DNA from: a virus
Reading direction: 5' to 3' (one strand)
Length of the DNA: 64,000 bases
Virus record (IMG/VR): IMGVR_UViG_3300003322_000872
Coordinates: 612-64,611 of that record
Shown piece after piece: positions 1 through 62,039 of this stretch (positions within the stretch are counted from its first letter, which is position 1; each line of letters opens with the position of its first letter). The position numbers and the translations under genes were made by a program. Under the pieces are notes generated by a model that was given only the letters and a program-made list of their open reading frames with translations, made no database searches and was not told the origin of the DNA.

Positions 1-3000
1 GCGTAGTAAGTCAGATTGTTGTTGCGTGACCAATAGTCCCAGAAGGCTTTCCCAGCAAAAGCCAGAGGCAACAGATTGTCGGAGCCACACATAATACCGC
101 AGGGCTTGTTGACCTCAATAACATCTCCAACCGACGCAGAGAAGCTACCAGATGTTGCAGTTGCAGCCGATACCTGAACAACGCCATTCTTGGTGATAAC
201 GGTATCGATTTCAGTAGTGGCGTAGTAGACAGTGGCAGCATTCGTATTCCAGACCACCATTGGACCAAGAATAGCATTTGATAACTTATCTATCAGCCTA
301 TCACTAACACCCAGCGGTTTTGTAGCATCGTCAGTTAGCTTAGCAGCCGAGGTTACCGGCCCAGCAACAGAAGTGAAATTCCCGGAAGCATCTTGATGGG
401 CAATCCAGTAGTAATAGACAGTGCCCGCCGTAAGGTTATCATCGATGTAATAACCAGCTGTAACCTTCTTGAATGGAGTCGTCGTGCCCGGCACTGGCGT
501 AGTGTTAACAGTGTTGCGGTAGACGGCGGTGGCCGCATAGTCCGGATATGTCAGGTTATCGACATCGGTCCAATCCACCTTATTGCGCTTAGTATTGGCA
601 GCGATCGACAGACCCGACGGCGTCGGGATAGTATTGCCCTTCTTGGATCGGGTATACGCTACGGCTGAGGTATAAGAACCAACCTTGTAAAAGGTATTTA
701 TTGCAGCTACTTGATAATTATACGACTGTCCAGTCTTTACCTCCACAGAAATAGAAGTTCCATCGGCAGGAAACTCCCGAACTTTACCATTTGAGACTTG
801 GGTAACCTTCAGGATGTAGCCTTTAACAGGTACTCCGGCAGCTGGCGCAGTCCAAGAAACATCTGTGTGTGCCTGAACAGTGCCATCGGTAAGGACCTCG
901 ATGATGCCTGCGCCGACTGTTAAACCAGTTGGTGTATTCGGGGGTGTCGGGTCCGTCTTGCCGTCAACAATACCACCATCCTTAACCAGCTTCGACGCCT
1001 CAGGACGGCAGAACATATGGGACCAAAATACAGTTCCGGCCGTCTGGGTATAGATGTAGGGCTCCAACCTTCCCCAAACAATCGTCGAGGTAGATGGAAC
1101 GACTAGAGTGTCACCGTATTCGACCCAAGACGTTGTCAACGAACTATAGAAGTTTAGATCAACAGTCGTGATTTCTGTAAGACTTGCATCACAGAAGCTA
1201 AGACGATAACCCGCAGCGGCTGCAGCCAACGAGCTATCCTTCTTCATCATACCGCCAATATAGTATTCTTCACCAGCACGAACTGGGAATAACAATGTAT
1301 TGCGATTTGTATAGGACGACCCCCCGGTGCCGGCGCGCTTCATAACATAAGTGCCACGGTAAGCGTTCACAGCGTCGCTAACAATGGTCGAAGGGTCAGA
1401 AAAGCCAACATTAGGACCAAGGCTGAGGTCGCTATTTGCGGCCATGGCCGAAGGATCATTTATATCTTGATCACTAAGGCTGACATACTTGGCATACCCA
1501 CTAACCGGTCCAGCTATAGCTGTGAAATTACCAGAAGCATCCTTATGCGCAACCCAGTAATAATACGTTGTCAATGGAACCAGGTTCTCATCCAAGAACC
1601 GGCCAGACTTTGTCTTTTTATAGGGAGCGGTCACTCCGGGTGTGGGAGTCGTATTGACTGTGTTACGATAGACGAACGTGGTGTCGTAGTCCGGATAAGT
1701 ATCCGAATCAACATCGACCCAATCGATAAGATTAGTCTTCATCCCAGTCGAGATCGTAAGTCCCGATGGGGTGGGAATCGTGGTAGAAGCCTTCTTTACC
1801 AGAGTTAGCTGGACCGATGCTGATGCCGCGCTAAGTTGCTTCGAGAACGATGATGCCTGACAAGTTACGGTGTATTGTACACCAACCTCTCCTGGTATTT
1901 GGAACTTACCGTTCAACGAATGCTTGGTTACAGCTGGATTACTAGCATTGTCTGTGATGGTGAAGATGAAATCAGTCTTGGCCGAATACCCAGCTACCGA
2001 AATCGATCCTTTAAGATAGGTTTTTACCGGGCCGTCCCGATCGGTTTTTTGATACTGGCTAAGCGTGATCGTACCAGGAGTCGCGGGCGGTGTAGCATCG
2101 GTCGCCGCTTCCGTAACGGAGCCTGTTCCAAGGTCGCTTGAGCCGATAAGGGCTCCAGCACTGGATACAGGACCAGCGACAGCTGTGAAATTACCAGAAC
2201 TATCCTTATGAGCAACCCAATAGAAATAGGTCGTTGTCCCTGTATTCTGATCGACGAGCTTACCGGACTTGGTCTTTTTATAAGGTGTCGTTGAACCTGG
2301 CGTCGGTGTCGTATTAACCGTATTGCGATAGACAAAGGTCGTTTCGTAATCTGGATAAGTATCCGAGTCAACGTCTGTCCAATCCACCACATTATTTTTG
2401 ATACCAGACGTGATCGCCAATCCAGCCGGGGTGGGAATATCTGTGGACGCCTTCTTAACCGGAGTAAGCGGCGTGCTTGCGGACGCAGCGCTAAAGACAC
2501 CAGCAAAAGAGATCGCCTGTGCTGTTACTGTATAGGTCGTACCAACTTCGGCTGGGAACTGGAACTTACCGTTGGTGCTATGGATTGGGTAGGTGGCATT
2601 ACCCGCGTTATCAGCAACCAAGAACACATACCGCGTACGCGCCGAATACCCGCTCGTAGAGATCGAGCCCTTGATATAGGTGTGGATACCACCATGTTTA
2701 TCGCGTTTTTGATATTGCGCAAGTGTAATAGAGCCAGGAGTAGCGGGGGGATTGGTATCTGTGTCGTCCTCGACAATGCGGATCGTTGTACCCACGATCC
2801 CCCCGGTATTCGATGCCGGATACTTGGCCGACTCATTCCCTGACCGATCGACAAATGTGATCCAGTAATACCGCGTTGTGCCATTGCCCAGATTAGCATG
2901 CTCCATCCGCGTGCCAGTGATATCGTCTAGCAGCGTTGCGGTGGTAAAATCATTCGTCGCTGATGAATAGACATTGGTCTTTTTGTAATCGCTATCCGGG

Positions 3001-5927
3001 CTGGCCCCCCAGCGGATTACATTCTTGTCATGCCGTCCAACGACCGTGAGCGACGTCGGAGCTGTCGGTGTCGTTGCCTTCTTATTGGCAAGCAACGTTG
3101 CATTGGAGGTATAGTTACCAACTGTGCCGAGCGACGATACCGCTGCCACCGAAATAGAATAGTTTGTGCCGGATATGATACCCCGGATACGTTTGCGATG
3201 GGTTGTGGCCGTACCGTTACCAATGTCCTTGACCGTGTAATAATCAAAATCTACCCCGTCGTCCACACGGACAACGTAACTGACCTTCTTGTTCGCGAGG
3301 CCGGTAAATGTGACAACGTATTCCAACTCTACCTTGCCATCACCATTCAGGTAGGTGCGTTGGGCAAGGGTCGGAACTCCAGGAACTCCTGGTGCAGTGC
3401 CATCGGTATCTGCCTCGGTGATCGATTGTGTCGTGACGCTCAACCCAGCAGTATTTGATGCCGGATACTTCGCTGACTCATTCCCTGATCGATCGACAAA
3501 TGTAATCCAGTAGAAGTAAGTCGTCAGATTTGATTTATTACCGTCGCTCCAACCAGTACCATGCTTTTCATGGACTTGGGTAGCTGATGTAAAATCGTTC
3601 ACGGTCGCCCGGTAATACCGGGTCGTGAAATAGTCCTTATCCGGGGACTTATCATGGTCTAGGACAACGACCTTAAATCCACCGGACCCGGTTAGGGATG
3701 TCGGCGCGGTCGGAGCTATGGACTTTTTCGACACAGTGAGCGACGCCGAGGGCGACCAATCGCCTGCCTCGTTATCTCCATGCAAAGCCCGAACATAGAC
3801 TGTATAGGTTTTACCAGATGATACGTCGAATTTGTAGGTGTTATCAGGGCTGTGGCGATAGAACGTGTCGGTGCCATCATCGATCTTCAGCTGATATTCG
3901 ACCTTGCCAACAACATCGGTCCATGTAGCTTTCATGCGGAAATCGAGTGTGCCGTCATCCGCCAAATAGGAAGATGCCGACAGTGTTGGTGCGGCAGGCA
4001 CATCGACCACGAACATCGTAACCGTCTTCCATCCGGTCCAGTTCGCCTTACGGGAGGAGATTATTGGATCAGCAATAAAACGGATTTCATACGATTTATT
4101 AAATCGCAGGGCCGAGTGCGTTATTTTACGAGTGTTATCCTCGACGTTATGGAATACTCCGTGTGCGAATACGTCGGTCTTACCGGCGCGGCGCATTTCC
4201 CAACGGATTTGCTTAACATCGATATCGAACGCACCCCATGTCCAACTAACCGAGATTGCAGGCTTGTCACGACCATCACCACCGCCTTTGATGGTTGTAT
4301 CGACTTGGCTCGGCGTAACTGTGAAGTCACGATTATAGGGGCTGACAACTTGGTCGTCAAGTGGGCCGACCGATTGTTCCAACTCCATGGTTGTGTCCCA
4401 ATTGTAATCATCGGGATCAATCTCACGGAATGTAATAAACTGGTTACAATTGGGCAAATCTTCCTTCTGGATAATAACAAACTTCTTATTCACATACCCG
4501 TTGCGGTCCGAGTTCCAATTTATGACGTCGTAGACTTCGAGGATCGCAGTTTCGGGCGGAAATGTGGCTTGATGGATGCGCTGTTTGCGACTATCGCGGA
4601 CCGCCGCGCGCATAAGACGTTGGACTTGGTTACGCTCAGATACCATAGGGAATTCGAGAGGCACCGAATACTCATTGCCATCATCCTCGTCTATGTAGTC
4701 CTGTGCCCGATACACAGCAGCATCTTTGCTCTCCCAGCAGGCATTCGGTTCGGGATAAGTAGCATTGGCAGTATTGTAGGTGTCCTGAATAGATTTGAAC
4801 AGGTCATCGTTCTGTTCTTCCGATATCAGAATATCTTCATCAGTGAAGCTATAGACCGACGCACCTGGCCCGCCGACATACATCTTCCAGAAGCCACCAA
4901 ATTCGATTGTATAGCCAGAGCAAGAGTTATCGAATTCTTTGAGCGTATCCAGTGGCGGAATGTCCACAGACACTTCCGCACCAGCAGTATAACGTTTTAC
5001 AAAGCCTCCCGCGTTCAATGTTACATGCTCATCACACGTATTCATCGCCGCCATCCAAATATCAGATGGCATGGCTTCGGCCGGGGTGTCCTGGCCACCG
5101 TACATGTGTTTGTTGCCGTATTTAATCCCCATGACAACATTATACGCCATTACAGCCACGTTATCGGAGAACTCATAAGTGGATTGGTCACCACGACGAT
5201 GTGATCCCGAACCACCCGACACAGTGCTGTCTTTACGGATATCATATAGTGGGATACCTTCAACAACCCACTTAAACGTTGGGATACCAGACCAAACACC
5301 ATGAGTAGACGACCGCGCCCTTACGATAACATAGGCACAGCCCCGTCCAATCATGTCGGACGACCAAGGCTTTACAGGATCAGCACCAAAAGTGTCAATA
5401 AGCCACTGATCGGCTACTGTCTGGGTGCCATCATAGAATTTCGTCCAGAGATAATCCTGGTCATTCTGGTAGTATTGATCCGTTACAAAGAAACCATCAG
5501 CATCCGGACCATCACCAAACAAGTAATCGATGATCTTCCCGTTGACAACCTGCTTAGATGAATAGGCTGTGATTGGTAATTCCGATATCTCGATAACCAT
5601 AACGAGATATCGATTGTCCTCACCATAGGCATTCACATAATTTAACTTGCCGGAGGTCGCATATTTGCCTATCACGAATGACAACGGGTTATCGCCGCCG
5701 GTATCCATGCGTTGTTTGACACCCTGCGGCTTTGGCTCATCTGGCGCGAACAATTTTTGAAGCAGATAATTCGCACCGATGGATAGCGCTGTCCCCAAGA
5801 CGGCAGTGCCAAGCGTACCCAGCCCACCAACAAGACCCCCGATAAGAGGCGCAATCATCGGCATGGCCGCAGCCGGACCAGCCCACGAAAGGAACATTGC
5901 GGTAGTAGCGAATAGGATTTTCTTCAC
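1..5927 (-). CDS. Giant tail-tip/central-fibre (host-specificity J-like) protein with tandem FN3-like repeats and a CBM-like insert; 3' end lies outside the window
   Basis: GTG start at 5927 overlaps the TGA of the upstream ORF (GTGA). I translated the N-terminus (MKKILFATTAMFLSWAGPAAAMPMIAPLIGGLVGG...) and spot-checked the same frame as open at ~1560, ~1460 and 3-60, giving >=1975 codons. Absent from the ORF track, probably because it has no stop in the window. Position after TMP/Dit/hub genes fits a tail-tip protein. Confidence 0.85.
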   Translation of the reverse strand, partial: MKKILFATTAMFLSWAGPAAAMPMIAPLIGGLVGGLGTLGTAVLGTALSIGANYLLQKLFAPDEPKPQGVKQRMDTGGDNPLSFVIGKYATSGKLNYVNAYGEDNRYLVMVIEISELPITAYSSKQVVNGKIIDYLFGDGPDADGFFVTDQYYQNDQDYLWTKFYDGTQTVADQWLIDTFGADPVKPWSSDMIGRGCAYVIVRARSSTHGVWSGIPTFKWVVEGIPLYDIRKDSTVSGGSGSHRRGDQSTYEFSDNVAVMAYNVVMGIKYGNKHMYGGQDTPAEAMPSDIWMAAMNTCDEHVTLNAGGFVKRYTAGAEVSVDIPPLDTLKEFDNSCSGYTIEFGGFWKMYVGGPGASVYSFTDEDILISEEQNDDLFKSIQDTYNTANATYPEPNACWESKDAAVYRAQDYIDEDDGNEYSVPLEFPMVSERNQVQRLMRAAVRDSRKQRIHQATFPPETAILEVYDVINWNSDRNGYVNKKFVIIQKEDLPNCNQFITFREIDPDDYNWDTTMELEQSVGPLDDQVVSPYNRDFTVTPSQVDTTIKGGGDGRDKPAISVSWTWGAFDIDVKQIRWEMRRAGKTDVFAHGVFHNVEDNTRKITHSALRFNKSYEIRFIADPIISSRKANWTGWKTVTMFVVDVPAAPTLSASSYLADDGTLDFRMKATWTDVVGKVEYQLKIDDGTDTFYRHSPDNTYKFDVSSGKTYTVYVRALHGDNEAGDWSPSASLTVSKKSIAPTAPTSLTGSGGFKVVVLDHDKSPDKDYFTTRYYRATVNDFTSATQVHEKHGTGWSDGNKSNLTTYFYWITFVDRSGNESAKYPASNTAGLSVTTQSITEADTDGTAPGVPGVPTLAQRTYLNGDGKVELEYVVTFTGLANKKVSYVVRVDDGVDFDYYTVKDIGNGTATTHRKRIRGIISGTNYSISVAAVSSLGTVGNYTSNATLLANKKATTPTAPTSLTVVGRHDKNVIRWGASPDSDYKKTNVYSSATNDFTTATLLDDITGTRMEHANLGNGTTRYYWITFVDRSGNESAKYPASNTGGIVGTTIRIVEDDTDTNPPATPGSITLAQYQKRDKHGGIHTYIKGSISTSGYSARTRYVFLVADNAGNATYPIHSTNGKFQFPAEVGTTYTVTAQAISFAGVFSAASASTPLTPVKKASTDIPTPAGLAITSGIKNNVVDWTDVDSDTYPDYETTFVYRNTVNTTPTPGSTTPYKKTKSGKLVDQNTGTTTYFYWVAHKDSSGNFTAVAGPVSSAGALIGSSDLGTGSVTEAATDATPPATPGTITLSQYQKTDRDGPVKTYLKGSISVAGYSAKTDFIFTITDNASNPAVTKHSLNGKFQIPGEVGVQYTVTCQASSFSKQLSAASASVQLTLVKKASTTIPTPSGLTISTGMKTNLIDWVDVDSDTYPDYDTTFVYRNTVNTTPTPGVTAPYKKTKSGRFLDENLVPLTTYYYWVAHKDASGNFTAIAGPVSGYAKYVSLSDQDINDPSAMAANSDLSLGPNVGFSDPSTIVSDAVNAYRGTYVMKRAGTGGSSYTNRNTLLFPVRAGEEYYIGGMMKKDSSLAAAAAGYRLSFCDASLTEITTVDLNFYSSLTTSWVEYGDTLVVPSTSTIVWGRLEPYIYTQTAGTVFWSHMFCRPEASKLVKDGGIVDGKTDPTPPNTPTGLTVGAGIIEVLTDGTVQAHTDVSWTAPAAGVPVKGYILKVTQVSNGKVREFPADGTSISVEVKTGQSYNYQVAAINTFYKVGSYTSAVAYTRSKKGNTIPTPSGLSIAANTKRNKVDWTDVDNLTYPDYAATAVYRNTVNTTPVPGTTTPFKKVTAGYYIDDNLTAGTVYYYWIAHQDASGNFTSVAGPVTSAAKLTDDATKPLGVSDRLIDKLSNAILGPMVVWNTNAATVYYATTEIDTVITKNGVVQVSAATATSGSFSASVGDVIEVNKPCGIMCGSDNLLPLAFAGKAFWDYWSRNNNLTYY

Positions 5928-10600: not shown

Positions 10601-11531
10601 TATTGAGCGCTGTGATCAGGCTTTCGATCGACGTGCGCAGGCCTTCGGTTGCACCCTTCCCGAGCTCGAAGAGATTGCCCCATGTGTTGCCGAGCGCATC
10701 CAAAGCCCCGCCGAGCTCTTGGCGCGCGGCTATAGCCGACCCACCAAATTCCCGTTGCAATTCATCAAGGATGACCGCCTGTGCTCGCGCCAATTGGTTG
10801 GAGTTGACAAAGCCGGTGATCATCTGCTTTTGAGTATCGGTGAATTGGATACCAACACGGCTCAGAGCCGAGATGCCTTGGATAGGATCATTGAGTGCCT
10901 TGCCAACCTGTATGGTAGCACCCTGTAGATCACCCCCCATCGCGGTAGCTAGATCAAGGATCGATTTCTGGGCGCGTTCGAACGTTGTCCCTTTAATCGA
11001 GGTGAACGTGAGCAATAGCGCTTGGGACTTTCCGATTGCATCATCCTCAAATGATGTAACAGCCTGCAGAGCAGCTGACATATTGTTCAGCGACTCTAAT
11101 GTTTGCCCCGCCGCCGCGCCTGTGCTTCGGATGACCGCAGCTAATTGGGCCTGGACCTTATTGGCTTCGATCGTATTGGTAACAAATTGCTTCATTGCGA
11201 TAATGGAGCCTAGGAAGGCCCCAAGCGCCGCGATCACCCCGCCCATGATGGCGATGAATCGACCAAATCCAGCTGTCACAATTGACAGATTACTCGCCAT
11301 GGCGTTGAAGCCATTAGACGTTCCATTGATCGAATTGCCAAGGTTCTTGAGATTGTCATTTGCTGCCCTACCAGCATCCCCAGCCTGACCCAGCGCACGC
11401 TTGGCTCGATCAACTTTCTGCTCGGTAGCGACAGCTGCATCACCAATCTCACCGAGAGTCCTTTTAACAACTGCCCCACCGGTCTGAGCTCCGGTGGGGT
11501 CAATACCAATCGCGATACTGCGGTCAACCAT
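7677..11531 (-). CDS. Tape measure protein with an embedded phage-tail lysozyme domain
   Basis: 1284 aa, Ala/Gly-rich helical; GATIQVGKALNDPIQG TMP motif; ISAIMGNIKAESSFNP...GLAQWND lysozyme motif; C-terminal FATGGVV...GERGPEAIMPL. Confidence 0.93.
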   Translation of the reverse strand: MVDRSIAIGIDPTGAQTGGAVVKRTLGEIGDAAVATEQKVDRAKRALGQAGDAGRAANDNLKNLGNSINGTSNGFNAMASNLSIVTAGFGRFIAIMGGVIAALGAFLGSIIAMKQFVTNTIEANKVQAQLAAVIRSTGAAAGQTLESLNNMSAALQAVTSFEDDAIGKSQALLLTFTSIKGTTFERAQKSILDLATAMGGDLQGATIQVGKALNDPIQGISALSRVGIQFTDTQKQMITGFVNSNQLARAQAVILDELQREFGGSAIAARQELGGALDALGNTWGNLFELGKGATEGLRTSIESLITALNNPAFQSFVTIVGTGFVTALQNVVDIATQVVNVISLINENLEKIAPYATAAGAALLVAFGPAMATSLGTIVTLMGEGFVSAIGAATSAMITFTLSNPFTAILEGIVLAVTAIYYFRDEIKKAIGVDVGDILKTVGNTIINSFRAAFDDVKTVVQNFPTIIGAAMIGMVNIIIENLNSLINAFRFAIDKMIAVANYIPGVNLQRLNLDENILPPLENPYFEQLKTMMDEREKRIKDIMSSDPLGDMFGHKGDLSKPGATPTTTIPGTTPGAADDTQKMSDALTALVKSAQDNIREQQTLATQLKMTGYEASVYAEQMKLINQAAAQNISLTPQQAAALKALGEEMARLKSITAAETMIQDQSKQMDTLIRERELIHASAEERARGLAILQAEQAMTEKGIDLNSQYAQTIKNNAAALAQAKLENERMQAAWQSWQQTGSSMVDTLVNGMTTVGSSWKDTLKNMGMQFLQFFNQLAIANPIKNALFGTNLPTISDLFSGKPLSALAGAQTTASMNVTAGTVFVNGAVPGLGGLPGMFPTAPGAAANAVTNGVRPTLTNNGIVNNPVAAAAVNGVRPEYVAGQLVNGTASQLSTTTVAGMPAGLSANEQLVWQHFAAQGLPNYQISAIMGNIKAESSFNPGIVGDNGNALGLAQWNDRGPAMQRFVGADWRTNPQGQLAFMDHEFATSESASWARLRSSTNVTEANNAMLGYERPSGYSATNPMGASQYTNRLNYSNQYLQGSQTAGQQTNLLPAAQTANQSLSKLSTTSAKTDTNIGQLASSATDTSKALTTSTSSVASSATSLASTTAQVPQQTQGLLGTLTSSLGNLFKSIGSGIGNIFGSLFGGLFANGAAFSNGQVTAFATGGVVDRPTLFPMASGIGLMGERGPEAIMPLMRGRNGRLGISAYGNDNRPPSNTNIHITYESHVRVDGVRDKELLEQIHKNTNEQIEQGMGHFSREVLPERMRDIKNDKWARG

Positions 11532-28445: not shown

Positions 28446-28746
28446 CCATTTCAACGGCCTCACACCCAAGGACGCCGAGCTATTAGCCATGCTCTCTGAA
28501 GAAGCGGCCGAGATCATACAGATCAAGGAAAAGATCATGCGGCATGGTTTTGATAGTCATCATCCAGCAAAGAGATACGGTCCAAATAACCGAATAGAGC
28601 TATCAAGGGAAATTGGTGATCTCCTCGGAGTATATGATCGGCTTGTAATGTTGGGGATTATTGATCCGCATGAAGTCGACATATATCGAGCCTCTAAGAT
28701 GGATCGCGCCAAGCCCTATCTACACCATCAAGACGATCCGGGGTAG
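28438..28746 (+). CDS. MazG-like nucleotide pyrophosphohydrolase-fold protein
   Basis: EEAAEIIQ..EK..RHG...REIGDLL acidic helical motif. Confidence 0.65.
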   Translation: MTDHFNGLTPKDAELLAMLSEEAAEIIQIKEKIMRHGFDSHHPAKRYGPNNRIELSREIGDLLGVYDRLVMLGIIDPHEVDIYRASKMDRAKPYLHHQDDPG

Positions 28747-28826
28747 TAGCTCAATGGTAGAGCACTTGCGTGTAGTGGCCACCCTGGACGCAAGGGTTGG
28801 AGGTTCGATTCCTCCCTATTCCACCA
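28740..28826 (+). tRNA. Atypical tRNA-like gene with a 20-nt anticodon loop; G3:U70 and A73 (Ala-type acceptor)
   Basis: Acceptor GGGGTAG/CTATTCC+ACCA; D arm GCTC-AATGGTA-GAGC; stem CTTGC/GCAAG; T arm GGAGG-TTCGATT-CCTCC. Confidence 0.8.
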
Positions 28827-46395: not shown

Positions 46396-48177
46396 CTATT
46401 CACAGCTCTTCTGGCCAGTCGTTGGATCGAAGGTGCATGCCATACCCAACGACATTTCCAACTCACGATCCAACGACGGAAACGTTTGTACTGGCGTTTC
46501 CGTCTTGGCTTTTTTCAACAGCCCCATTCGCCGCCCTTCCGGATTGAAGGTCGTAATGCCCTTGCACCCGAGCTCATGTGCCTTGCGATAAACCCCCTTA
46601 AACTCATCCCAGGGCATCGCCGGGTTAACATTGCAGGTTTTGGATACCGCGCTGTCCACATAGCGCTGGGCCGTCGACAAGACAGCAATATGCTCGTCGA
46701 TCGTAACTTGTTCGGCAAGCTTAGGGATCGTGCCGAACTGCGAATAAGCATAATCGGGGAGTCGCGCCATGACAACACCATCAGGGGTGTTAATGGGTCG
46801 CTCAGTTTCCAGGGCGAACACCGGCTCCGCACCAGATGAGATGTTATCAGCCGCCATTGATATGGTGCCGGTTGGTGCGATCGATGTAAGGTGCGAGTTG
46901 CGAATGCCAAAGCGCTTGATAAGCTCGAAAACATCCTGATCCAAATTGCGAAGGAAGGAGCTCTTCAGATAACGGTCGTCGTAGAGCGGGAAAGCGCTCT
47001 TAGTCGCCGCCAGCATGGCAGATGCCCGGTAAGACTCGTTCATTAAGGTCGATCCGATCGCGGCCTGGAAGTCGAGGAACTTCTTGCTGCCATAAGGCAT
47101 CCCCAACGTCTCCGCCGCGTTCGCTAGACCGGTATATCCTAGCCCCATGCGACGCTTGTTCTTGGCCTCCCTCTCCTGTTCCGGCAACGGATAGATCGCA
47201 ACATCGATAACGTTATCCATCGCCTCCACCACGACCGGGATATCCTCGATAAAGGTATCCCAATCAAATTCGTATTGGCCGAGAGCATTGACCTCGATGT
47301 AACGGACCAAATTGAACGAGCCGAGCAGGCAAGCCCCAAAGGGCGGTAACGGCTGCTCGCCGCATGGATTGGTAGCGGCAAGTTTTTCACAGTACCAGAG
47401 ATTGTTCATCCGGTTGATCTGATCGATGAACAGGACTCCTGGCTCGCCCCAATCCCACGTAGAGCGCATGATCTGTTCCCATAGCATCAGAGGGTCGATC
47501 TCTCCAAAAGACCGACCCTCGAACCGTAACGTAAATGATTTGCCGCTGTCCAAATGCTCCATGAATTCATCGGTAACAGCTGTCGATATATTGAACCCTG
47601 ATAGGGTGTCCTGATCATGCTTGGCATTCACGAATTCAAGGATGTCTGGATGATCGATCCGAAGCACACCCATCTGTGCCCCTCGCCGATGCCCTGCCGA
47701 CGCTACGGCTTTGCCGACCGCATTGTAAATCTTCATAAACGCGATGACACCGGATGAGCTCGACTGGAGAGTCTTGATCATCGCCCCATTCGGCCGCAGA
47801 GTAGAGAAATCATAACCAATCCCCCCGCCCACGCGCATGGTCGCCGCCGCTTGTTCGGCACGATGCATGATCGATGAATTGTGCTCGTTGTCTCTATCAA
47901 CAAAACTGTCGGGAATGGTGCCCGACACGAAGCAGTTATACGGAGTAGTTTGGCGGGTTGCCCCGATCGCGGCCTGAATACGGCCCGCCGGGATAAACCG
48001 CATAGACAGCAAAATTTCGCGAAGATCGTGATAAGCCTCACGCGTATCAGTAAGTACAGCCGACACTCTGTTCATTGCATCCCTAAATGTTTCACCGTGC
48101 TGGCGGTATTTCATGGCGTGCAGATCGTCGCAAAATTGCAATGCTGGCCCAAACATAGTTATTCTCCTGGGAATCAA
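46396..48177 (-). CDS. nrdJ: Class II (adenosylcobalamin-dependent) ribonucleotide reductase
   Basis: FIPAGR, TPYNCFV, GHRRGAQM, TNPCGEQPL, SIAPTGTIS; C-terminal Cys pair; no ATP cone; no NrdB gene nearby. Confidence 0.92.
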   Translation of the reverse strand: MIPRRITMFGPALQFCDDLHAMKYRQHGETFRDAMNRVSAVLTDTREAYHDLREILLSMRFIPAGRIQAAIGATRQTTPYNCFVSGTIPDSFVDRDNEHNSSIMHRAEQAAATMRVGGGIGYDFSTLRPNGAMIKTLQSSSSGVIAFMKIYNAVGKAVASAGHRRGAQMGVLRIDHPDILEFVNAKHDQDTLSGFNISTAVTDEFMEHLDSGKSFTLRFEGRSFGEIDPLMLWEQIMRSTWDWGEPGVLFIDQINRMNNLWYCEKLAATNPCGEQPLPPFGACLLGSFNLVRYIEVNALGQYEFDWDTFIEDIPVVVEAMDNVIDVAIYPLPEQEREAKNKRRMGLGYTGLANAAETLGMPYGSKKFLDFQAAIGSTLMNESYRASAMLAATKSAFPLYDDRYLKSSFLRNLDQDVFELIKRFGIRNSHLTSIAPTGTISMAADNISSGAEPVFALETERPINTPDGVVMARLPDYAYSQFGTIPKLAEQVTIDEHIAVLSTAQRYVDSAVSKTCNVNPAMPWDEFKGVYRKAHELGCKGITTFNPEGRRMGLLKKAKTETPVQTFPSLDRELEMSLGMACTFDPTTGQKSCE

Positions 48178-60395: not shown

Positions 60396-60437
60396 CGGTG
60401 ATCTCCTGTTTAGATCGTTTATGCCGTATGAGGTCAT

Positions 60438-60477
60438 AAAAGAAAAGGGCCAGCACCATCTCTGGTTACTGACCCTT
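60438..60477 (-). terminator. Rho-independent terminator closing the ncRNA locus
   Basis: AAGGGTCAGTAACCA-GAGA-TGGTGCTGGCCCTT followed by TTCTTTT. Confidence 0.75.
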
Positions 60478-60542
60478 CCGGATACTTCGAGGCGCTCTGC
60501 CCGGTCATGGAGCCCGGCTGTACATTACCTCCCTCTTGTACC

Positions 60543-60630
60543 CACAGCGACGAAATCTAAGCAGATTCCTCGGATGCTTAATCCGAAGCTTTGGTTTGGA
60601 AAGCTGTAATCCGCTCAAGCATTCGCTGTA
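60543..60630 (-). ncRNA. Second Y RNA-like RNA (no tRNA module; YrlB/Yrn-like)
   Basis: UACAGCGA-AUGCU-UGAGCGGAUU ... AAUCUGCUUA-GAUUUCG-UCGCUGUG long stem; two apical hairpins (AGCUUU/AAAGCU, UCGGAU/AUCCGA); shares GCGAAUGCUUG and UCGUCGCUG with the first Y RNA. Confidence 0.75.
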
Positions 60631-60635
60631 TTCTT

Positions 60636-60712
60636 TGGTGGGGTTCGATAGTTCCAACAGGAGAGCCCAACGAGCGTCCCTCGATCTGGTACAAAACCTT
60701 TAACACCACCCC
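60636..60712 (-). ncRNA. 77-nt structured element ending in ACCA
   Basis: 5' GGGGU pairs with ACCCC followed by A-CCA; bulged long stem with two inner hairpins; no canonical T arm. Confidence 0.4.
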
Positions 60713-60785
60713 GACGATGATCAATCGCCGGTATAGAACTTTAGGAGAACCGAACGACTAAGGCTATTAGTCCGATCCTCCACAT

Positions 60786-60924
60786 ACCCATCAGCGACGA
60801 GTAGTGTATAGACGTTTACCGCGTCCTAACCACTAGACGATCACTCTTGGCAGAGCGAGTCGGACTCGAACCGACGTTTCGGGCTAGCAAAGCCTGTAGT
60901 CCATACAAGCATTCGCCAATGGGT
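60786..60924 (-). ncRNA. yrlA: YrlA-type Y RNA (circularly permuted tRNA mimic on a Ro60-binding-type stem)
   Basis: Outer stem ACCCAUUGGCGA/UCGCUGAUGGGU with GGCGAAUG (GNCGAAN0-1G); inner stem UGUAUGGAC/GUCUAUACA; T arm GUCGG-UUCGAGU-CCGAC, acceptor UCGCUCU-GCCA-AGAGUGA and D arm GUCU-AGUGGUUA-GGAC in T-AS-D order. Confidence 0.88.
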
Positions 60925-60979
60925 GACACAGGGCTTACGCCCAGTGTTTCGCTCTTGTGCGGTAGAGCTCATCAGACCC
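60921..60979 (-). ncRNA. Type I hammerhead ribozyme, predicted cleavage GUC/ between 60925 and 60924
   Basis: GGGU-CUGAUGA-GCUCU(ACCGCACA)AGAGC-GAA-ACAC(U)GGGC(GUAA)GCCC(U)GUGU-C/ACCC: intact core and three stems. Confidence 0.92.
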
Positions 60980-61270
60980 GTATTCGGTGCCCGCTACGCT
61001 CTTCGTCCTATGTTACACTCGGACTCCGGGTACGTAGCGGGCGGTCGGCGTTGTTCATTTCCCCGATATTTTTACAGCCTTAACCCTCGGGGTGAGCGGG
61101 GTATTAACTCGATTTTAGTTTTCCCCGGCTCTGCAGTCCTGAGCTTGGGGAGGGACGTATCCCAGATTTATCCTATCTCTAGAGGCCTTCTAAGCGGACT
61201 TGCAGGTTTGCGGTCGGCTAGTGCTGCGGCCTAGGTTCAAGATAAGGCAAGAGGAATCACAAGTAAAGGC

Positions 61271-61714
61271 TCATTTCTGGGCTTGTTTCATCCACTCATC
61301 GAAGCGCGCCATTCGTTCGTTGAGATTATCCTCACCATACTTACGAACGAGCTCCTTAACCCGCGTCCAATCGGGTACGGATTTAGGATTGGTTTCCACC
61401 TTGGAATAGGACAGCCCTCGAAGGAATCCGTAGGCGATTAGGGCCGATCGCGCTTCGGACCGCACTTCACCGGTGCGATGGTAACGGAGGCCCCAGAAAA
61501 TCTGGAGGTTACGATCGGAAGGCGCGATCAACTTACGGGTAAGTTTTTGGCGCTCGGTATCGGTAAGGTCGTTGGACCGGGCAAGCATGCGGCGAGCACG
61601 CACTCGGCCCCGATGCCCCACGTTATGTCGGCGCTCCTCACGATGAATCATCGTGGCTTCAGCAGCGAGGGACATGATTTTGATTTTCAGATAGGTATGC
61701 ATGATTTTCTCCAT
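61271..61714 (-). CDS. Conserved phage hypothetical protein
   Basis: YLKIKIMSLAAEA..I..EERR...HR..EVR.EAR...IAYGFLRG..Y..VE. Confidence 0.7.
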   Translation of the reverse strand: MEKIMHTYLKIKIMSLAAEATMIHREERRHNVGHRGRVRARRMLARSNDLTDTERQKLTRKLIAPSDRNLQIFWGLRYHRTGEVRSEARSALIAYGFLRGLSYSKVETNPKSVPDWTRVKELVRKYGEDNLNERMARFDEWMKQAQK

Positions 61715-61774: not shown

Positions 61775-61849
61775 TGGTATCCTATGAGGGAATCGAACCC
61801 TCCCACTGGGTTTTAGAGGCCCTGCTTCAACCACCGAAGCTCATAGGAC
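61775..61849 (-). tRNA. tRNA with CUA anticodon (amber-suppressor type)
   Basis: Acceptor GTCCTAT/ATAGGAT+ACCA; D arm GCTTC..GAAGC; loop CT-CTA-AA on a weak stem (3 G-C pairs); T arm GAGGG-TTCGATT-CCCTC. Confidence 0.8.
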
Positions 61850-61949: not shown

Positions 61950-61989
61950 TAAAAAAGAAAACCCACCTCTTCTCGAAAAAGAGATGGGT
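61950..61989 (-). terminator. Rho-independent terminator
   Basis: ACCCATCTCTTT-TTCG-AGAAGAGGTGGGT-type hairpin followed by TTTCTTTTTT on the minus strand. Confidence 0.65.
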
Positions 61990-62039
61990 CATCGATCTGC
62001 ACTTGCTTACCCAGGATCGCACCCCCTGGAGGCGACCGA

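Follow-up and report, generated by a model that had tools for sequence, protein, structure and literature searches.

A probable YrlB-type Y RNA gene beside a YrlA-type RNA in a complete phage genome without a Ro60 gene

Y RNAs are the normal partners of the ring protein Ro60/Rsr. They are understood as adaptors that direct the Ro60 ring to a particular effector. Two or three Y RNAs have been described per species. YrlA (Rfam RF02553) is the family of tRNA-mimicking Y RNAs from bacteria and mycobacteriophages.

Rsr also binds a second, non-tRNA-like kind of Y RNA, namely YrlB in S. Typhimurium and M. smegmatis and Yrn2 in D. radiodurans (Chen et al. 2014, PMC4201824). The motif GNCGAAN0-1G is common to YrlA and YrlB and was proposed as the Rsr contact (PMC4201824). 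The handle is the published Ro60-binding part of Y RNAs, and in bacteria and large phages it is found with Ro60/Rsr genes. Phage Y RNAs have already been published from 22 phages (PMC4201824) and from phiLo (PMC12135203), and so have pairs of a tRNA-like and a non-tRNA-like Y RNA. The Thermus phage phiLo encodes Yrl1 and Yrl2, which carry CGAA in a stem-bulge-stem and are proposed to engage the host PNPase, with phiRo60 directly downstream (PMC12135203). A phage Ro60-like protein, gp130 of Bas63, counters the Ppl defence (PMC11482910). The survey of 2014 sought bacterial and phage Y RNAs only beside Ro60 genes (PMC4201824). Y RNAs without a cognate Ro60 were therefore excluded by design, and no description of Y RNAs with the canonical handle in a complete phage genome devoid of Ro60 was found in the literature.

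The window, the whole stretch of 64 kb that was analysed, is part of a 77,484-bp viral genome with a CheckV completeness of 100%. Judged from its sequence and predicted fold, the segment 60630-60543 (-) is very probably the gene of a YrlB-type Y RNA (RNA2), a paralogue of the YrlA-type RNA1 encoded upstream. The locus of the two RNAs occurs in one DNA run, from a plant-root metagenome, and in none of the RNA runs listed. All elements of the cassette are on the minus strand, and they are given here from its upstream limit downwards (R1 is the covariance model of the handle described below):

61960-61990 (-), terminator-like site of the preceding gene, the upstream limit of the cassette
61775-61849 (-), tRNA of the amber-suppressor type, anticodon CUA, at the head of the cassette (ARAGORN; Rfam tRNA, 31.3 bits)
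61271-61714 (-), P0001, a basic protein of 147 aa between the tRNA and the hammerhead
about 60925-60995 (-), type I hammerhead-like ribozyme directly 5' of RNA1 (sequence; Rfam HH9, 17.6 bits, E 1.6)
60786-60924 (-), RNA1, YrlA-type candidate Y RNA with the handle and a permuted tRNA-like module (RF02553, R1)
60631-60785 (-), structured spacer between RNA1 and RNA2, 155 nt, with three hairpins (predicted fold)
60543-60630 (-), RNA2, probable YrlB-type Y RNA of 88 nt with the handle and two apical hairpins (predicted fold; full-length R1 match)
60436-60479 (-), terminator-like hairpin and U run with the tail UUUUCUUUU, closing the cassette (Rfam, ctRNA_p42d-like hairpin)
60395-59475 (-), the next gene downstream, with an HMUDK_hel domain (the helical domain of 5-hmdU DNA kinases)

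RNA2 and RNA1 (60924-60786) have GCGAAUGCUUG and UCGUCGCUG in common. In the window, the 11-mer GCGAATGCTTG has just two exact occurrences, at 60626-60616 and 60916-60906, which are the 5' ends of RNA2 and RNA1, and UCGUCGCUG is the 3' end of both. Both RNAs contain an internal loop of 5 nt x 7 nt, with AUGCU opposite GAUUUCG in RNA2 or CUACUCG in RNA1. The common ends and the identical loop size, which the earlier note pointed out, are thus read directly in the sequence. The inner helices are UGUAUGGAC/GUCUAUACA in RNA1 and UGAGCGGAUU/AAUCUGCUUA in RNA2. Of the five pair positions that differ, four have double changes that preserve pairing and one changes from G-C to G.U, so that the differences between the paralogues are compensatory, as the same note had it. 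One G.U wobble is seen at the same place in both helices.

RNA2 is predicted to fold into a closing stem of 8 bp and a helix of 10 bp, separated by the internal loop, with two hairpins at a junction beyond the helix. The segment 60632-60540 folds with an MFE of -32.1 kcal/mol (z = -3.7), and none of 200 shuffled sequences folds as well. The boundaries proposed before this analysis are exact, with U60630.G60543 as the closing pair. The elements of RNA2 are as follows:

60620-60626 (-), GCGAAUG, the CGAA-containing putative Ro60-contact motif, A-G-CGAA-U-G (sequence; motif from PMC4201824)
60608-60617 (-), 5' strand of helix 2, UGAGCGGAUU (predicted fold, R1, family covariation)
60607-60605 (-), ACA of the conserved UACA, directly after the 5' strand of helix 2
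60587-60605 (-), apical hairpin A, stem AGCUUU/AAAGCU and loop CCAAACC (MFE fold alone)
60570-60586 (-), apical hairpin B, stem UCGGAU/AUCCGA and loop UAAGC (MFE fold alone)
60567-60558 (-), 3' strand of helix 2, AAUCUGCUUA (sequence, predicted fold, R1)
60557-60551 (-), the 7-nt 3' side of the internal loop, GAUUUCG (sequence, predicted fold, R1)

The motif GNCGAAN0-1G is represented by AGCGAAUG in RNA2 and GGCGAAUG in RNA1. RNA2 retains CGAA, the U spacer and the last G, and its first G is replaced by A, which is paired with U. This variant is seen in seven of 42 family members, including RNAs of phages that encode Ro60. The common handle is composed of a terminal stem, the CGAA-containing 5x7 internal loop and a helix of 9-10 bp with the conserved G.U, followed by UACA. 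RNA2 contains this handle without a complete tRNA-like domain, about 155-160 nt from the YrlA-type RNA1, and these are the features by which YrlB-type RNAs are recognised. That two hairpins take the place of the tRNA module, as suggested at first sight of the locus, agrees with the predicted fold, with the published YrlB-type RNAs (PMC4201824) and with bacterial relatives of 80-88 nt. Many short Y-type RNAs, including RNA2 (60598-60593), also have, shortly beyond the conserved UACA, a single-stranded stretch rich in A and C that reads GCCAAA or CCAAA. This stretch might be a shared effector-binding site.

The hammerhead core appears complete by eye: CUGAUGA, a 5-bp stem II, GAAA, stem III with a GUAA loop, and the GUC triplet, followed by ACCC. 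The predicted cut gives RNA1 the 5' end ACCCAUUGGCGA, which pairs with UCGCUGAUGGGU at its 3' end. RNA2 is not preceded by a ribozyme. The Rfam ribozyme threshold is reached at none of 15 other phage Y-array loci scanned. The spacer 60631-60785 has no match in Rfam, and its reading as a tRNA was rejected, with nothing called by ARAGORN down to the 90% threshold and spurious intron-containing calls at 80%. In an unrelated phage contig (L159), a tRNA(CUA) at 11108-11179 (-) is placed immediately upstream of two handle RNAs (10988-11052 and 10867-10926). Elsewhere in the window, the tRNA gene at 28740-28826 (+), scored at 56.9 bits and called His by ARAGORN, has about 13 extra nt in the anticodon-loop region, where Rfam aligns 18 nt against 5 in the model. 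It is possibly intron-containing or otherwise unusual.

RNA2 is intergenic and is located upstream of a gene on the same strand, the HMUDK_hel-domain gene, which belongs to a DNA-hypermodification cluster. It could be considered as a cis-acting element of a longer transcript, that is, a processing signal, a stabiliser or a leader of this gene. This is highly improbable, given the terminator-like hairpin and U run between RNA2 and the gene, and given that RNA2 matches, over the full model length, a family placed in tRNA/Y-RNA arrays and not in leaders.

The Rfam model RF02553 matches RNA1 over its full length with 33.4 bits (E 2e-4), against a gathering score of 69, and does not match RNA2, because RNA2 is without the T-arm, acceptor and D-arm module. 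The score of RNA1 alone is weak evidence, because ordinary phage tRNAs reach about 30 bits. The relatives were therefore gathered directly by sequence pattern. The handle of RNA1 agrees with the bacterial YrlA consensus at the conserved positions, and its layout is the same as that of the phage YrlA RNAs in L085, L077 and other contigs. No phage YrlA examined reaches the gathering score of RF02553, including those adjoining phage Ro60 genes. A pattern of the 5' handle and T-arm retrieved real YrlA-type RNAs from ten viral contigs. Nearly all these contigs contain tandem arrays, in which one handle is common to short hairpin forms (55-80 nt) and to long forms that are tRNA-like. The phage arrays are embedded in groups of tRNA genes. 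Two of the Y-RNA arrays directly adjoin a phage-encoded tmRNA gene, and these tmRNA genes are at 1447-1766 (+) in L162 (118.7 bits) and at 1823-2219 (+) in L134 (69.1 bits), both by Rfam.

The covariance model R1 is based on an alignment of 13 short handle RNAs from ten other phage contigs, with RNA1 and RNA2 outside the seed. With filters off and 128 kb searched, RNA2 is found at the first rank (60629-60544 (-), 34.4 bits, E 1.3e-6) and RNA1 at the second rank in the window (24.1 bits, E 6e-4). The third-best match in the window has an E of 0.5. The idea that prompted this analysis, a second Y-type RNA with a Ro60-type handle, is thus borne out by the top match, which covers the full model length. 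No further copy is found over the rest of the 77,484-bp genome. Weak R1 matches at 46897-47093 (+) are attributed to chance; they have no CGAA and are antisense within the ribonucleotide reductase gene.

The two handle helices were also compared among 42 distinct phage RNAs. Here 92% of cells are paired versus 66.5% in shuffles, and double changes are seen in 14 of the 15 handle pairs. The covariation score is 0.685 versus 0.197 and is reached by none of 500 shuffles, in an alignment fitted to the model, which is a bias toward the structure. The slid controls do not exceed 0.107 and there are many pair types, and for these reasons the signal can be considered real. The handle model finds many Y RNAs, both short and tRNA-like, which the Rfam YrlA model does not report at its gathering threshold.

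Direct orthologues of RNA2 were found neither in IMG/VR, nor in JGI metagenomes, nor in the fetched loci. A pattern scan of IMG/VR for RNA2-like ends gave 51 matches, all of them chance and about the number expected, and a stricter RNA2 pattern gave one chance match in JGI metagenomes, across a gene start. With blastn against all fetched loci, RNA2, the spacer and the hammerhead have no match, and RNA1 has two exact 18-nt matches only, in the T-arm segment (positions 50-67). By synteny through the HMUDK_hel-domain gene, a Y RNA is seen in none of 15 loci. Two "YrlA" matches obtained here, in G001, are ordinary tRNAs.

The common handle is probably the Ro60 handle, and the associative evidence for this is strong. 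A Ro60 orthologue of about 530 aa (vWA_Ro60 and TROVE) is encoded in seven of nine YrlA-bearing viral contigs, and in six of these seven its gene is about 0.6-2 kb from the handle RNAs. The phage Ro60 matches D. radiodurans Rsr (PDB 2nvo) end to end with an E of 1.5e-18. In bacteria, 52 of 80 loci contain such RNAs according to the handle pattern and R1 together, 140 in all, and these form arrays of 2-6. A Ro60 ORF within 8 kb is seen at 32 of the 52 R1-positive loci, versus none of the 28 R1-negative ones. The bacterial members of 80-88 nt that adjoin Ro60 genes are composed of the handle and two hairpins as in RNA2, some with a T-arm-like hairpin. The same handle is found beside a Ro60 ORF in the root-associated Variovorax, Pelomonas sp. 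Root405 and Rhizobium. As for copy number, arrays of five or six handle RNAs within a few kb are seen in Acidobacteria, Pyrinomonadaceae and Rhodobacteraceae (L221, L246, L187, L201, L242), which exceeds the two or three known for a species.

In this phage, no Ro60/rsr gene is located within a few kb of RNA2, a criterion for Y RNAs in Chen et al. (2014). TROVE has no match in the window or in the whole 77,484-bp genome, as was already noted for the ORFs of the window, and in the same whole genome no match is found to vWA_Ro60, to DUF2828 (the other phage Ro-like family) or with a phage Ro60 protein as the query. An HMM of seven phage Ro60 proteins, run at maximum sensitivity on all six-frame ORFs of the genome, gives a best E of 0.12. 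All ORFs of Ro60 size are otherwise identified: ribonucleotide reductase, UvrD-type helicase, AEP primase, SNF2 helicase and tail protein. The contig ends (window 3-5927 (-) and positions 75788-77482 of the whole record, G000) join into one ORF of 2755 aa with Ig/fn3-like tail-protein domains. The uninterrupted frame across this junction indicates that the "linear" record is a closed, circularly permuted assembly. The earlier note had left room for a Ro60 encoded elsewhere in the phage. For the genome as assembled this is excluded, since the TROVE check of the full genome is negative, with four profiles and the custom phage-Ro60 HMM.

The Pfam TROVE profile (PF05731), used as a whole-genome probe, missed the Ro60 genes of Variovorax and Pelomonas that are found by the phage-Ro60 HMM and vWA_Ro60-type profiles. 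The negatives were therefore repeated with vWA_Ro60 and the custom HMM. Negatives from RF02553 alone or from TROVE alone are unreliable.

The recurrence of this arrangement was examined in viral records at least 90% complete with R1-verified handle RNAs, a small sample (n = 10) drawn by sequence pattern. Ro60 is present in five of them (G006, G007, G010, G013, and G112), which are mostly jumbo phages; four of the five are 173-424 kb. It is absent from the other five, this phage (G000), G011, G018, G106, and G107, which are 44-77 kb and include two proviruses (G018 and G106). These facts show that a phage with handle RNAs and no Ro60 is not a one-off. A search for the host of the G018 provirus, by blastn of its Y-RNA locus (L168) against the fetched bacterial loci, gave no match.

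The cassette might be a recently captured remnant, taken over from a bacterial rsr locus or a phage with Ro60 while the protein gene stayed behind, and RNA2 would then have little or no function in this phage. The nearest relatives by the neighbouring HMUDK-domain gene are without Y RNAs, and the cassette may be a recent import that left the partner gene behind. The failure to find RNA2 orthologues in IMG/VR and JGI metagenomes is in line with it, and the compensatory changes could predate the transfer. As a whole this is rather improbable. In both handles every conserved position is preserved, the G.U wobble among them. The cassette comes with a ribozyme, a terminator and a tRNA context of its own, and its GC content equals that of the genome (0.521 versus 0.526). 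Four other near-complete phages are likewise without Ro60, which speaks for an arrangement that is maintained.

Many ORFs of the genome are without a known family, and one of their products, unrelated to Ro60, could recognise the common handle instead; another protein recognising this stem was also considered in the earlier note. This is very unlikely: the ORFs of Ro60 size are all accounted for, and no candidate was found among the rest. P0001, encoded within the cassette, has no match in Pfam or PHROG. Its 98 homologues, at 65% identity or less, are found in varied phage contexts without handle RNAs, e.g., between terminase and capsid genes. In the other Ro60-less handle-bearing phages it is absent but for one chance-level match. 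P0001 was rejected as a dedicated Y-RNA partner because it is widespread in phages without handle RNAs.

The best explanation overall combines the YrlB-type identity of RNA2, processing from a common transcript and loading onto the host Rsr, and it is on balance a probable one. RNA1 and RNA2 would be derived from one minus-strand transcript, bounded by the terminator-like sites 61990-61960 and 60479-60436, which would also carry the suppressor tRNA and the small ORF. The hammerhead would cut the 5' end of RNA1, and host RNases would trim RNA2 to its closing stem. The two RNAs would load onto the host's own Rsr with two effector modules, one tRNA-like and one of two hairpins. There they would compete with the host Y RNAs, and the Rsr(-PNPase) RNA-decay/repair machinery of the host would be retargeted or sequestered during infection, much as the earlier note proposed. 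For this last part, loading onto the host Rsr and retargeting or sequestering Rsr(-PNPase), the case is tentative, and it falls somewhat short of probable. The complete genome has no Ro60, so the host Rsr would be the most likely partner. Loading onto it is also the most economical reading, because bacterial Y RNAs have the same handle, those of root-associated genera among them, and it was a root metagenome that yielded the phage.

The terminase, portal and DNA polymerase are nearest to those of phages of different Alphaproteobacteria, at 40-51% identity, a weak pointer to the host, and the hosts of the nearest cultured relatives are Brevundimonas, Paracoccus and Pelagibacter. The root-associated Variovorax, Pelomonas sp. 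Root405 and Rhizobium are plausible hosts. A sample of 81 Caulobacteraceae genomes gave no clear Ro60, and for this reason the host may be without Rsr.

Since the Caulobacteraceae are the host family of the nearest cultured relatives by terminase, this result bears on the main rival to loading onto the host Rsr, which is that the RNAs act without any Ro60. They would then bind the host PNPase or another host RNA-handling enzyme directly, by way of their loops and modules, and modulate it, with the handle mainly as a stable scaffold. In EMSA, Yrl1 and Yrl2 of phiLo form complexes with the host PNPase even when phiRo60 is left out, and no Ro60 is encoded by T. thermophilus HB8 itself (PMC12135203). 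The absence of Ro60 from half of the ten near-complete genomes with handle RNAs can also be read in this way. However, the PNPase binding in phiLo was obtained in vitro, and the handle sequence there is another one. What is conserved between the paralogues and in the family is exactly the Ro60-contact handle and not the loops, and elsewhere the handle is tightly tied to Ro60 genes. Action without Ro60 is thus unlikely, and the host Rsr is preferred as the partner.

It can be speculated, with considerable doubt, that small and temperate phages of about 44-77 kb make up a class which has only the RNA half of the Ro60/Y-RNA system and reprograms or disarms the Rsr-PNPase surveillance and repair of the host. 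If this is true, the RNAs would in effect serve as a device against the host or its defence made of RNA only, and jumbo phages, by contrast, supply a Ro60 themselves. The device of this phage would be two-headed, tRNA-like and two-hairpin, with one of the RNAs released by the hammerhead, leaving a 5'-OH end.

Comparison with the described systems places RNA2 closest to YrlB and Yrn2. As a second Y RNA it accompanies an adjoining tRNA-like YrlA-type RNA on one strand, its 5' and 3' ends form a long stem with the CGAA motif, and it has no complete tRNA-like module. The difference is that RNA2 is encoded by a phage, with no rsr nearby or in the genome, and its partnership with Rsr is a prediction here. 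With YrlA, RNA2 has in common the handle GGCGAAUGC ... CU(Y)GUCGCC, the internal loop, the second helix and CUACA. RNA1 is of this type, although it is below the gathering threshold of RF02553, and RNA2 differs from the family by having no T-arm, acceptor and D-arm module. Like phiLo, this phage encodes two Y-like RNAs with the CGAA motif in a stem-bulge-stem, but phiLo encodes its own Ro60 and this phage does not. The arrays of phages with a Ro60-like gene also resemble this cassette, as tandem small RNAs with one handle and different bodies, in or beside tRNA arrays. A gene of the TROVE or DUF2828 type accompanies those arrays, and neither type is encoded here. Judged by its sequence, RNA2 itself is ordinary for the Y RNA family, and it is the Ro60-less context that is new. 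Phage Ro60-like proteins have been tied to counter-defence (PMC11482910) and to the inhibition of host PNPase (PMC12135203), which makes timely the question raised by this complete Ro60-less phage and the four near-complete ones: can a virus seize a host ribonucleoprotein by its RNA subunit alone?
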